Below are positions 10,901 through 13,559 of a DNA stretch of 55,742 nt, piece after piece (the stretch's first letter is position 1; the number at the start of each line of letters is the position of its first letter). The notes below the pieces were generated by a model, which saw nothing but the letters and a program-made list of their open reading frames with translations, was not told the origin of the DNA and did not search any database. Made by a program: the position numbers and the translations under genes. Origin of the DNA: a virus. Its lineage: Duplodnaviria; Caudoviricetes. Location of the stretch: the IMG/VR virus record IMGVR_UViG_3300033143_000932, positions 1 to 55,742 of that record; one strand, given 5' to 3'.

Positions 10901-13559
10901 CAAATCCTAGTTGATTTAAAACTCTAATAACATCAAATGTATGTTTATTAATATTAAGTTTATCTAGTATTTGTTCTTTTTCATTATCTACAGATGCAGA
11001 TTGATATGCAGAAATAACTTCTGATTTATATCTTTTACCTTTTATTGTTTTAGTACTAGATAAATTACCATTAGAATTTTCATTACCAAATTGAACACTT
11101 ATCCCGACCATTTGTTCAATAGTCTCATCGTACTTTTGTAAACTTAAATTTTTACCTTGTGATATAGCATTAAATACACTATCTAAACTAAATACTCCAA
11201 TACCAGCTTGACCTGCTGTTGCATTAATAAATTTCTGTTTTTGATATTTATCAGATAGAGGGGAAAATTTAACTTTATCTTTATTACGTGCTTTAAGATA
11301 ACCACTAATTTTAGCCGCATCTTCTTTTAATGTACCAAATCCTAAAGGTTCTGCAATTTGACTTTGTATTCTTTCATCAGGATTACTTAGTATATCAAAA
11401 TGTACATCTAATATAGTATTTTGTAATTCAAGTTCTTTAAACTTTGATTTAAAAGTTTCAAATTCATCTGTATGCCAATCTTCACCAAATATTTCAATAA
11501 GAAACTTATCTACTGTAGAATCGTTTTTCTTACTAAATAAAGCATCAATTTCAGATTCATCAAATTCATACTTTGATAATTTACCATTACTATATGTAGT
11601 ATTATACATATAAGAATATAACTTATCAATATCAAAATCAGAACCCATTTGTATAACAAAATCTCTAGGAGCAATTAATAAATCTCCTGAAGTCTTAGGT
11701 AAGAAACCTACTACTTCCATATAAGACATACTATTTAATCCTTGTGTTGGGATTCTAAATCCAAATATCTGTAATAGTTCTTTTGGTAATCTACTTGTAT
11801 CTATTAAACCGTCTTTGATAAAATCTTTAGCATTTAATAAATTACCTTTACTATCTCTAAATTTAAAAGGTATTATAATCTGAGCTGGTTTAACTACTTT
11901 TTTAGTAGATGTTACTTCACCGTAATGACTATTAATTAATTCTAATATTTTTTTAGCTTGTTTTTTATCACCTGCTTCATAATCAACGATATGATTTAAG
12001 TCCTTAGCAGAAATAGTTATATTTTCATCTGCTTTTAATTTCTTAATACCCTCATTAATATTATCTTTAGTATAAGAATCACTTCTAACTTCAACTTCTT
12101 CTGTACGTTGAGGTAATAATTCTCCTGTAAACTCTTTAGTAAATACAATATCAGATTGTTTTACATCTTCTAAGTTAGAAACTTGGAATCCTTCTTCTGT
12201 ACCTAATACAAATGAAGCACCTTTCATCTTTTTCTTTCTAACTCTATTATCAACTATTGAAGATAGTAAAGCTTCTATTTTACTAGATGAAGGGTTATGT
12301 GCTAATGGAATAACAAATCTACCTTTCTTATCTAATTCTAAACCTTGAATTTCATTAATAGAATAATCTCTACTAATAGCTTCTGATTTTAATATATCTT
12401 GAAGTTTTTCAATATCTAAACTACCATCTGGTTGAACTTGTAATTCTCTTAATATATTCTCATAACCTATTTTAAATAACTCATTATAAGCATCTAAATA
12501 TTTAGCTTGTGATTTTTCTACACCTTCTACATCTAGTATATTACTAAATAATAATTTTCTTTGTTGTGAACCATCATTTACTTTAGACTTATTTTCATCA
12601 TAAGGTACTTCTTGTTGTATCTTAAATCCTGTTCTAGGTAATCTCATAGATTTCTCCATAAGATTTATGTCATCTTTTATAGTACCATCTTCATTAAATA
12701 TATTAGTAGGTTTCGCAAAATCTCCTACTTTAACAGCACTACTAAATGCAACTCTATCAATACCTTTTTCAATAGCGACTCTTAATTTATCTATTTCTAA
12801 ACCTTTAGTTATTTGTTCAAATAATGGAAAACTAGATGATTTAATATAAATTCTTTTATCTACATCATTAGCAATATCAAGTTTATTTTGAACGTATACA
12901 GGTTTAGCAGGTTGTAAAACTTCTCCTATTTCATCAATACTTAAATCTTCATTATTAAGTACTTTCTTTTCTATAGAAGCTTTAACCTCGTCAGTTATTT
13001 TACCCATTTTTTCAAGCATATATAAATGCTCTCCTAAACTAGTAAATTCTTGTGCATCTGTACCTTCAAACCCTATATAATCTTTAGCTTTCTCTTTCCC
13101 CAGTATATTGTTGTAGTAATCTTGTACAAGAGAACTACTTTCTTTATCTGATATAAAAGCTTGTACATAATGGTCATTCTCACTATCTGCTAACTCAAGT
13201 CCAGGAGCAATATCTCCAGCAAGTCTTTTACCTATATTGATAAATGTATCTTCTACTTGTGTAATAGCATCTTTAGCTTTACTCTTATAATATATAGCAG
13301 GGTCACCAACAAATAATTGATGTACATTTGCATTACTTATTAAATAATTTACTACAAAATCTGTAGCAGCAAATTTCAACTTATTATTCTTATTTACAAC
13401 AGATATACTATTAACATAATTCATATCCATGAAGTTCATATTTTCAGCAGTAATACCAAAACTATTCCATTCTTGAACTTTATCACTAACTAATGATTCA
13501 ACATGTTCTCTAATTGTATCTTTAAATATTTGTAAACTTTCTGTGTAAACTTTCTGCAT
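4938..13559 (-). CDS. Virion-packaged RNA polymerase (crAss-like two-barrel RNAP) catalytic part, fused to a zincin protease domain and a long C-terminal ejection-protein region; probably the 3' part of a frameshifted 4870-aa gene
   Basis: GFRIPTQG...MGSDFDIDK catalytic motif (~11622-11645); TDAQEF, KSSSFPL, SAVKVG and SVDNEKE blocks; HELTH zincin motif (8991-9005) with downstream QEFVA. Confidence 0.9.
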   Translation of the reverse strand: MQKVYTESLQIFKDTIREHVESLVSDKVQEWNSFGITAENMNFMDMNYVNSISVVNKNNKLKFAATDFVVNYLISNANVHQLFVGDPAIYYKSKAKDAITQVEDTFINIGKRLAGDIAPGLELADSENDHYVQAFISDKESSSLVQDYYNNILGKEKAKDYIGFEGTDAQEFTSLGEHLYMLEKMGKITDEVKASIEKKVLNNEDLSIDEIGEVLQPAKPVYVQNKLDIANDVDKRIYIKSSSFPLFEQITKGLEIDKLRVAIEKGIDRVAFSSAVKVGDFAKPTNIFNEDGTIKDDINLMEKSMRLPRTGFKIQQEVPYDENKSKVNDGSQQRKLLFSNILDVEGVEKSQAKYLDAYNELFKIGYENILRELQVQPDGSLDIEKLQDILKSEAISRDYSINEIQGLELDKKGRFVIPLAHNPSSSKIEALLSSIVDNRVRKKKMKGASFVLGTEEGFQVSNLEDVKQSDIVFTKEFTGELLPQRTEEVEVRSDSYTKDNINEGIKKLKADENITISAKDLNHIVDYEAGDKKQAKKILELINSHYGEVTSTKKVVKPAQIIIPFKFRDSKGNLLNAKDFIKDGLIDTSRLPKELLQIFGFRIPTQGLNSMSYMEVVGFLPKTSGDLLIAPRDFVIQMGSDFDIDKLYSYMYNTTYSNGKLSKYEFDESEIDALFSKKNDSTVDKFLIEIFGEDWHTDEFETFKSKFKELELQNTILDVHFDILSNPDERIQSQIAEPLGFGTLKEDAAKISGYLKARNKDKVKFSPLSDKYQKQKFINATAGQAGIGVFSLDSVFNAISQGKNLSLQKYDETIEQMVGISVQFGNENSNGNLSSTKTIKGKRYKSEVISAYQSASVDNEKEQILDKLNINKHTFDVIRVLNQLGFEEDTVTAFINQDIIRDYVEETIKVADITSDTFSGREEYVVSTLIKKYAPLMKETDMDKNFLGLADIGSKELLYMIQNSDNHKDNLKYQKTQASILFKFKRLKELGLVLADLQSTINTDSAGLNKSMIINKLKAGKLDKLGNEGVVANASKLIGDYIPRQLIGINEEQQFIKNEGYIKLNDYLVKPNTINGFASMYALNLNSKLWDKFLPYGEKSVMDMFKAIELESTNRDLSINQKDELYTNIWKNIKSYIYTSGNLGLSKDKDITVERERLMFDTKDNKSLASIIQDLKTQPVGKTNPFLNKLTTDIHKGNKPSLIKFDAATGENFDELNIYAGFVDLITNEREIGEFNDIKYTTRTLAQDLILQQYATGGIQEAIQFIKYIPQSYLNTIGFSKGLNDLILDEQGLKTFERQYFQHNPSKATILQSDSIYLKDSIKDVSKTESITIIKESEPLWKIENGYARPPRYISMYNVKSGNKFNLYELGEGLTYHKIDTLGTFGYKEYDKGISYSSSLIQANKSRSKIKGTKDIPEDVYDKYYIDNEEGEGITGLYSLNEENDTRRTLGFLGNVITNSTNPLYKEYAKKLLENVNKVNVVIETDLDLNARGATKGNVIYYNPSKINSTKELEKVLLHELTHAFTNQAIKSGSPQVLRLQGIFNELKNNIDPTKLKTLVEKLEQVKQGKKVGLTVEEAEVTYGAYNLQEFVALAMTSTEFQDILKTMKYSPEKSFFQELVDRIVDVLETLGLTKDSALKDVITDVFGIIESNIEPDSTTDYLPSMINQTQEIEIKLGIRHTDGTRKRYLEKNYEKTLALRKKLMTRVPDGYTIKFAKQTGEKGDRRMYDALIIEREKENEFYYLPDLMDDGNRFIRLINEVQFRKRQVEQSIVSAKKENNLKRLEELNSRLAVIDDEISELEEASKLEDIQFLAERDLNRVKNILVKEKVTASELHEASRILNVWKKGRELFFNEDEKTSTELNHTFGIYQIDAENYADKLTKLQYKLGKEFIKDEVGVETTISEIFAKQQDVSFLASRTLDISRNDNALLQSALKSQKVANDNARKESEKVFKDFDNLLERVNPLLPKGSNKYDMFLQQDSKGRYTGDLVHMYSTKFFETKSRLRRKAKATNKKEDWNKYLKWKKENEIIFDVRKLFPDKEVYTHQTYDKAVADKHREELKSHLGEASYNKLITELEDKIKKYKETYDYTKERIDSLEELTDKEKAEELKLWELTNSPYYYSKMAIDGQVLKYGKDFIRPKGYEYTYEAPRRVDTKGKATEWYDKDFEKISNNETLLEFYEYILDTFVEMTSYLPPSKQDKMQINTIPEIRKSTLELFSEKGMKGGFRGLFDKFTESNLTDDVDDVSFALRDPVTGEVEKSLNIKHLSDKSATVSKLLKIKKINHFQTTGKEATAIEVKEMIKDIKNELAKEKSLDLGKVLKAYTSTVLSYKHKAGIEDQLRLVNSILHNTAEIEFTSDKRPKVDPSGNLVKKTQEESFTKLKAQYDYFMDAFYGKTRNLEGVSDIRKLTKTEKEDKKDLESKLEINERLFKSNEIDETKYETTKITLETQIEELGGNVVGSKIGDNVLKYVQLKGMGWNVFSAFSNMGFGVISNLIEASDGRAYSKKQFLSAMWMVKASIGKNLTFNVVESKQAKKIRSLMDSFDVLKDATNELYESTTQSGLKNRVKFASPYNLQARSEYVNQAPMMIALMMNKPVTGKDGKEYTLWEAYDENGDVKENFELDQDLLDNYKVQLDQLIKSAHGNYDPDSPLLAKQKIMGRALTQFRTWMFEGFSNRFESEKFDSLLGYTRKGRYVSLYETVKESPAANLLFTAKQLVRKLTFRATKFDEKFSEVDAANMRKNLTELVIYMNLLGIGLLLKSMAGDDEDKNKFLINYTLNQMLRLQTDISFYTNPASFESLTKNSVPALGLINDAGQWIESATLLMMGEDEIKGGINSGDSRFLRETMQSLPFGTQVYRNISASRQVFDK

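Follow-up and report, generated by a model that had tools for sequence, protein, structure and literature searches.

Are two adjacent giant open reading frames (ORFs) of a crAss-like phage two genes, or one gene broken by a 13-bp tandem duplication? The locus that raises this question lies in the IMG/VR virus record IMGVR_UViG_3300033143_000932, which is linear and estimated to be 65% complete, and whose whole stretch of 55,742 nucleotides (nt) was analysed (the window). On its minus strand, ORF1 (2013 amino acids, aa) and ORF2 (2873 aa) overlap by 38 nt, and within this overlap a 13-nt unit occurs twice in tandem (13531–13556), as an earlier note on this DNA had described and as the sequence, Tandem Repeats Finder (TRF) and the ORF calls all bear out. 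To judge from their similarities, the two ORFs are the halves of one virion RNA polymerase (RNAP) polyprotein gene, and we consider it probable, on balance, that a recent slippage-type tandem duplication has frameshifted a normally fused gene of ~4870 aa and that the present arrangement is not an adapted feature. The elements at stake are the following, the designations g065, g066 (protein gp66) and g067 being those of phage phi14:2 and 6VR4 being the gp66 structure:

13522–19563, minus strand: ORF1, 2013 aa, similar to a g067-like N-terminal part followed by roughly the first 600–800 residues of a gp66-like RNAP module.
13522–13524, minus strand: TAA stop codon of ORF1, met only owing to the frameshift.
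13531–13543, minus strand: second repeat copy on the coding strand, which by frame arithmetic shifts the downstream frame by +1.
13544–13556, minus strand: the more 5′ of the two repeat copies on the coding strand, reading TGTAAACTTTCTG on the plus strand (TRF).
13557–13559, minus strand: presumed ATG start of ORF2, apparently a chance ATG, whose context scores like that of a random internal ATG.
4938–13559, minus strand: ORF2, 2873 aa, similar to the remainder of the gp66-like RNAP module (residues 831–1706 of 6VR4) followed by a g065-like C-terminal part.

On the plus strand, the site reads ...AAATATT TGTAAACTTTCTG TGTAAACTTTCTG CATTAG..., with the two copies at 13531–13543 and 13544–13556. 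The repeat is exactly 26 nt long, without a partial third copy and without flanking microhomology, and TRF reports it with a period of 13, 2.0 copies, 100% matches and a score of 52 (one of 75 rows). It is the sole perfect two-copy tandem with a period of 11–30 in the window; when the window was simulated 200 times with a first-order Markov model, a tandem with a period of at least 13 appeared in 4 simulations and one with a period of at least 11 in 14. Because the insertion of 13 nt amounts to 12 + 1 nt, the frame of ORF2 is +1 relative to that of ORF1. ORF1 ends ...TNAESLHRKFTNI*, that is, with six out-of-frame residues (HRKFTN), then I, then the TAA codon, and the N-terminus of ORF2 is MQKVYTESLQIFKDTIREH / MQKVYTESLQIFKD...; the corresponding peptides are AESLHR for the end of ORF1, MQKVYTESLQIFK for the N-terminus of ORF2 and TNAESLQIFK for the product of a fused gene or of a ribosome hop. 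With a single copy, the length becomes 14626 − 13 = 14613 nt, or 4870 codons plus a stop, exactly as the earlier note had calculated. That note also held that the duplication supplies both a stop and a restart. The effect on the frame and the stop stands, but the ATG is not created by the duplication: lying upstream of both copies (13559–13557), it would be present in the one-copy form too and therefore predates the duplication, which only put it in frame.

The fused form of the gene is found in a near-identical strain. By exact look-up, ORF1 and ORF2 fall into one 90% cluster together with two other proteins, P0123 (4865 aa, on a 43,747-nt contig) and P0122 (895 aa, on a 13,392-nt contig). 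Over about 4860 aligned residues, covering 1–2007 of ORF1 and 7–2873 of ORF2, P0123 displays no substitution, and all its differences are accounted for by three indels of the slippage type. At the junction, P0123 reads ...NPDVLTNAESLQIFKDTIREH... (TNAESLQIFKD), which is the exact product of the one-copy sequence; the uninterrupted reading ...DVLTNAESLQIFKDTIREH... that had been predicted on the assumption that the ORFs are halves of one gene is thus borne by an existing protein. The other two indels are an additional tandem EQEVT and a missing NETESINETL, and the lengths tally (4870 + 5 − 10 = 4865 aa). Since the 878-aa and 1304-aa neighbours on the 43,747-nt contig each differ by one residue from those of the window (1/878 and 1/1304), this contig represents a distinct strain and not the same assembly. 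P0122, for its part, is identical to ORF1 over 890 residues and then reads TSTYY*, in the +2 frame of the window just past the second indel site. P0122 can be derived by one 38-nt deletion at ~16855–16894 and P0123 by a 30-nt deletion there. The two additional sites are:

17359–17373, minus strand: EQEVT codons, residues 731–735 of ORF1, single in the window and duplicated in tandem in P0123 (a 15-nt difference).
16855–16894, minus strand: second indel site, residues ~891–904 of ORF1, with the long allele in the window, a 30-nt in-frame deletion in P0123 and a 38-nt out-of-frame deletion in P0122.

The latter site encodes degenerate five-residue units (NETES/INETL/GETP). Altogether, we have three haplotypes of one phage that differ in this gene almost solely by repeat-associated indels, those outside the junction measuring 15, 30 and 38 nt, and two of these three haplotypes are frameshifted. 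The copy number of the junction repeat differs among near-identical genomes, with two copies in the window and one in P0123; note that the one-copy state is deduced from the P0123 protein and that the variation concerns two genomes. The absence of any substitution relative to the fused strain suggests that the two-copy allele is too young for adaptation or decay. A search for the DNA of the one-copy strain by a flank-gap-flank pattern gave no match in viral contigs and none in metagenome contigs, and a search for related loci returned only a relative with 38% identity in viral contigs and nothing in metagenome contigs. As the best match among short proteins was 45% identical, that search did not bring to light another haplotype of this phage.

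The assignment of the gene relies on several comparisons. Residues 21–939 of ORF2 match the chain of the phi14:2 gp66 structure (6VR4_A, residues 831–1706) in three colinear stretches with an E-value of 2.1e-32, and the match includes the catalytic DxDxD (DFDxD) motif of the gp66 family:

11625–11639, minus strand: DFDID catalytic motif of the RNAP, residues 641–645 of ORF2, aligned to GSDFDIDK of 6VR4.

Using the RNAP part of ORF2 as a tblastn query, we obtained matches in 138 phage records; these include many Crassvirales genes annotated as 'putative RNA polymerase' as well as g066 of phi14:2 ('Catalytic RNA polymerase subunit', ~24% identity). The family PHROG 16227 ('virion structural protein', 4401 positions) is matched by both ORFs in order, residues 1471–1985 of ORF1 falling on positions 1950–2497 and residues 160–672 of ORF2 on positions 2749–3252. 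When P0123, the fused relative, was compared with a three-sequence database by phmmer, it matched g066 with an E-value of 3.6e-37, with colinear segments at 224–592, 808–1243, 1307–1412 and 1470–1692, and its C-terminus matched g065 (981–1407); its N-terminal similarity to g067 was not significant in this comparison. No Pfam family was found for ORF1 or for ORF2, phmmer gave no PDB match for ORF1, and neither megablast nor blastn gave a match in the nucleotide phage collection. Upstream on the same strand, PHROG profiles identify a terminase large subunit (2e-122), a portal (2.1e-101) and a major head protein (3.2e-100), so that the gene closes a structural block and the layout is crAss-like. 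Taken by these similarities, ORF1 and ORF2 are the two halves of one crAss-like virion RNA-polymerase polyprotein gene, whose product would be packaged and ejected; the RNAP/ejection label initially proposed is upheld by the 6VR4, PHROG 16227 and g066 matches.

If the break were an established gene boundary, it should be shared by independent lineages. We searched for relatives with residues 1–500 of ORF2 and considered the best 120 of the 439 proteins found at E ≤ 1e-3, i.e. 119 without ORF2 itself. The nearest distinct relatives among the matches listed are 4882 and 4804 aa long, with 54% identity. In 112 of the 119, a single chain aligns to the final 63 residues of ORF1 as well as to the initial 40 of ORF2, the junction is likewise internal in the remaining seven, and no long relative among them begins there. 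Shorter proteins were searched too, with 43 matches, mostly proteins that cross the junction or contig-end fragments; five (P0157, P0166, P0169, P0171 and P0177) begin ~45–55 residues past the junction, one of them, of 451 aa, on a 22-kb contig, and none clearly shares the boundary. One IMG/VR relative was found that includes the junction region, and it is open across the junction. In an alignment of 28 relatives and P0123, the junction coincides with the start of a moderately conserved stretch (~LKDxVxxYVxxLVxxKLxxW), and homologues display small indels directly upstream of it. The comparison with relatives, as called for in the earlier note, shows the gene to be continuous at the junction in P0123 and in the 119 listed, more distant relatives. 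A separate feature of this family is that many giant relatives (e.g. P0026, P0027, P0034, P0037 and P0047) have precomputed Pfam helicase/AAA domains (PF13604, PF13245, PF05970, PF13538 and PF01443) fused to the polymerase polyprotein; one relative is named DUF1768/YbiA-like in its source.

According to the 6VR4 and g066 alignments, the junction corresponds approximately to gp66 residue 800–808. The section of the structural preprint that sets out the gp66 domains gives a cleft-blocking domain at 196–233, a Connector at 1095–1238 that links two barrel domains, and the DFDID motif at 1361–1365 (bioRxiv 10.1101/2020.03.07.982082). The break lies C-terminal of the cleft-blocking domain and N-terminal of both the Connector and DFDID and, as placed by these alignments, it interrupts the polymerase protein itself rather than separating its two barrels. 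We also considered a split between the two barrel domains (β/β′-like) at this locus and rejected it, since a break at ~800–808 is upstream of the Connector. A split of the between-barrel kind does occur in three IMG/VR relatives, L008 (354–14334), L009 (6099–13848) and L010 (183–16952), where the RNAP module is divided into two ORFs. The split point corresponds to about residues 2365–2377 of P0123, past the part aligned with the gp66 Connector and before DFDVD, a motif carried by the downstream ORF; in all three loci, a ferritin-like/rubrerythrin-like ORF of 157–162 aa (PF00210, E-values from 1e-12 to 2e-10) lies between the two halves. The RNAP module can therefore be encoded as two chains, though the split is ~370 residues downstream of the break in the window.

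Comparison with better-known phages leads to a similar picture. In phi14:2, the gene order g067–g066–g065 agrees with the domain order of the polyprotein of the window, but these are three separate genes (1797, 2180 and 1421 aa), whereas the lineage of the window has one frame of ~4870 aa. The transcription block consists of two or three large virion proteins in crAss002 (gp32 + gp33), Rudgehvirus and Kehishuvirus, and PhicrAss001 packages three separate RNAP-associated proteins, gp47, gp49 and gp50, as stated in the relevant part of Bayfield et al. 2023 (PMC10172136). In the naturally split blocks, the boundaries are ~850–900 residues upstream of the point that matches the break in the window. 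Hence, the break falls ~800–900 residues inside the catalytic protein of phi14:2, crAss002, Rudgehvirus and Kehishuvirus and at none of their gene boundaries, the position in the latter three (~850–900 residues) being an estimate from match offsets that assumes no large indels. Like the one-copy gene of the window, gp33 of the Flavobacterium phages Fpv1 and FpV4 (~29–31% identity) is a single coding sequence (CDS) of 4401 aa, annotated 'virion structural protein' (PHROG 16227). In Fpv1, the junction flanks match 40362–41855 and 42111–43697, both within the CDS 34368–47573, and the gene is unbroken, where annotated, in all 29 Flavobacterium phage records matched by both flanks.

The passages of Yutin et al. 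2021 (PMC7886860) on the Zeta group of crAss-like phages describe giant RNAP genes that are broken by frameshifts or stops, with boundaries that vary among close relatives and a mode of expression that those passages leave unexplained. As described there, these frameshifted RNAP ORFs are the closest published parallel to our locus, although the case of the window is far simpler and its cause evident. The Zeta-group genes combine many disruptions with introns, inteins and recoded stops, whereas the window displays a single break with an obvious mutational cause and an intact sister allele, and its long ORFs under table 11 give no sign of an alternative code.

A stable fission should have given ORF2 an adapted translation start. 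We scored ATG codons by comparing 20 nt upstream and 6 nt downstream with a matrix derived from 28 presumed gene starts of the window. The context of the ORF2 ATG scores −2.3, against a median of 4.4 for the 28 presumed starts, ~7% of which score that low; by contrast, 37.5% of the 1312 other ATGs on the same strand score at least as high as the ORF2 ATG. The fraction of A in the 15 nt upstream of the ORF2 ATG is 0.33, compared to a mean of 0.53 for the presumed starts, in keeping with the poor context already noticed in the earlier note. No adapted translation start was thus found for ORF2.

Frameshifts caused by slipped-strand tandem duplication, as in contingency loci, and the translational bypass of T4 gene 60 are known comparators for an arrangement of this type. 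In contingency loci, a short tandem duplication alters the frame and can revert; the window has a repeat tract of 2.0 units only, in contrast to a long tract, and displays neither conservation nor evidence of switching. As to a bypass of the gene 60 type, matched codons on either side of the gap could permit hopping: three codons of the first copy (GAA, AGT and UUA) are met again 13 nt further on in the ORF2 frame, so that a ribosome hop would restore the ancestral protein. However, a stimulatory element is lacking. The 131-nt junction RNA has a predicted minimum free energy of −15.6 kcal/mol (z = −0.28), 66 of 200 shuffled sequences fold at least as well, and no stimulatory structure was found in this RNA; visual inspection of the junction did not reveal any known +1 shift signal. 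Nor is the frame change conserved, since P0123 and the 119 relatives read in one frame. A programmed frameshift, or recoding stimulated by RNA structure, was rejected because the arrangement is not conserved and the RNA structure is absent.

The course of events that we consider probable would be as follows. The ancestral state, which is also seen in relatives, would be a one-copy fused gene made of g067-like, gp66-like RNAP and g065-like parts, and this gene would very recently have acquired a 13-nt tandem duplication such as replication slippage produces. The additional 13 nt would cause a +1 shift, so that translation from the true start would stop after 2013 aa, and the catalytic part (DFDID onward) would be made only if ribosomes restart, either at the chance ATG, which precedes the stop by 35 nt, or at a Met further on. 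The two-copy form would then be a recently arisen allele, and short-repeat indels would be the main source of variation among the strains of this phage population. Several observations weigh against this scenario. The two-copy allele has no independent witness: the exact ORF1 and ORF2 proteins are found on the contig of the window only, and the public read assemblies examined below have a gap over the site. As early transcription presumably depends on this RNAP, it would be surprising for a disabling mutation to become the consensus when a population is assembled, and the allele may therefore be tolerated, in a fission-like manner, or be an artefact. That two haplotypes out of three have lost the frame, each at another repeat, could reflect either a technical cause common to the data sets or real tolerance. 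Finally, given the lack of flanking microhomology, simple slippage is an assumption.

Could the second copy be an artefact of sequencing, library preparation or assembly? The phage DNA would then be one-copy, and the second copy would be a product of the amplification or of the sequencing, or else reflect a handful of aberrant reads in a poorly covered region. Among the 11 public runs listed, we compared the Logan contigs of the four that best hold this phage (X1–X4) with the window: they cover parts of 12961–14300 at a depth of 2–7, and leave a coverage gap (13279–13569) that spans the junction, the nearest piece being 35 nt long (13570–13604), with 5 mismatches and with flanks that do not resemble those in the window. 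In run X1, a Logan contig matches the window perfectly up to 13278 and continues with 19 foreign letters, which we take to resemble a library adapter; an adapter-like end at this position fits the low coverage of this phage in that run. This low depth, the confinement of the two-copy form to one contig, the single copy of the near-identical strain and the frameshifting indel of the third contig (P0122), which suggests that assemblies could be noisy at repeats, are what an artefact would predict. Against it, a 26-nt structure is shorter than usual k-mers and reads, so that an assembler should create it only from reads that contain it, and short-read sequencing does not typically err by duplicating 13 nt in tandem; for these two reasons, we rate a real allele as more likely. 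Moreover, the rest of the contig is clean, with long unbroken ORFs, and of the 10 neighbouring proteins looked up, 8 are found unchanged on 4–7 other contigs, which indicates that the assembly is generally accurate. An artefact is thus unlikely in our view: the two-copy form is most likely an ordinary young mutation and less likely an artefact.

We give still less credit to a tolerated or incipient fission, in which a real and viable allele would produce both ORFs, ORF2 by termination-reinitiation, and the products would work as two polypeptides. The duplication does bring a stop and an in-frame ATG within 38 nt, the status of contig consensus suggests that the allele is not lethal, and the surroundings seem permissive, with small indels in homologues directly upstream of the junction, a family that naturally occurs as one, two or three genes, and the three IMG/VR relatives that split the RNAP module ~370 residues further on; in addition, the part of the gp66 preprint concerned presents the polyprotein as probably cut into pieces anyway (bioRxiv 10.1101/2020.03.07.982082). 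The gene fission in progress imagined in the earlier note, understood as an adapted one, nevertheless finds no support: the 119 long relatives do not start at the junction, the start context of ORF2 is that of a random ATG, later adaptation is lacking (no substitution relative to the fused strain), and the break lies elsewhere than the natural gene boundaries of phi14:2, crAss002, Rudgehvirus, Kehishuvirus and Fpv1. A bolder version, namely that the polyprotein gene is a hot spot for slipped-strand indels whose frameshifted forms are viable through restart or a 13-nt hop, and which would represent either a first step of fission or reversible ON/OFF control, appears distinctly improbable. Least probable by far is the remaining pair of proposals, a reversible slipped-strand ON/OFF switch or read-through of the two-copy form by a +1 shift or a 13-nt hop on GAA, AGT or UUA from copy 1 to copy 2. 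One-copy and two-copy alleles do exist in near-identical strains, a two-copy tandem can in principle revert by slippage, and the identical codons 13 nt apart fall in the ORF1 and ORF2 frames, respectively. Yet two copies do not make a long repeat tract, the four runs, with their gap over the site, contain no read evidence for both states in one population, the sister strain and the 119 relatives lack the arrangement, no stimulatory RNA structure was found, and unstimulated hopping is inefficient; beyond the existence of the two alleles, the switch suggested earlier finds no support.

Other features of the window can be reported briefly. A strand switch occurs just past the giant gene, where small plus-strand ORFs (87–346 aa; 743–4705) converge on the end of ORF2, the region 4938–54278 being on the minus strand. 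A search for tRNA genes over the whole window found none. The highest TRF score (64) belongs to an 18-nt tandem repeat at 47026–47064 (2.2 copies, 90% matches), located where a 448-aa minus-strand ORF (45900–47246) overlaps a 173-aa plus-strand ORF (46801–47322).

In conclusion, ORF1 and ORF2 should, on the strength of their alignments, be annotated as one disrupted crAss-like virion RNAP polyprotein gene and not as two genes, with the one-copy form of the sister strain as the intact reference for this gene. The locus offers a clean example of the breakage of a giant phage gene, seen in near-identical strains that display repeat-associated indels and almost no substitutions. If the frameshifted alleles are real and viable, they would provide a tractable entry to the question that the Zeta-group passages of Yutin et al. 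2021 (PMC7886860) raise, i.e. how interrupted crAss-like RNAP genes are expressed. Were the gene truly a hot spot with viable frameshifted forms, it could serve as a simple model for the frameshifted RNAP genes that still lack an explanation in other crAss-like phages.

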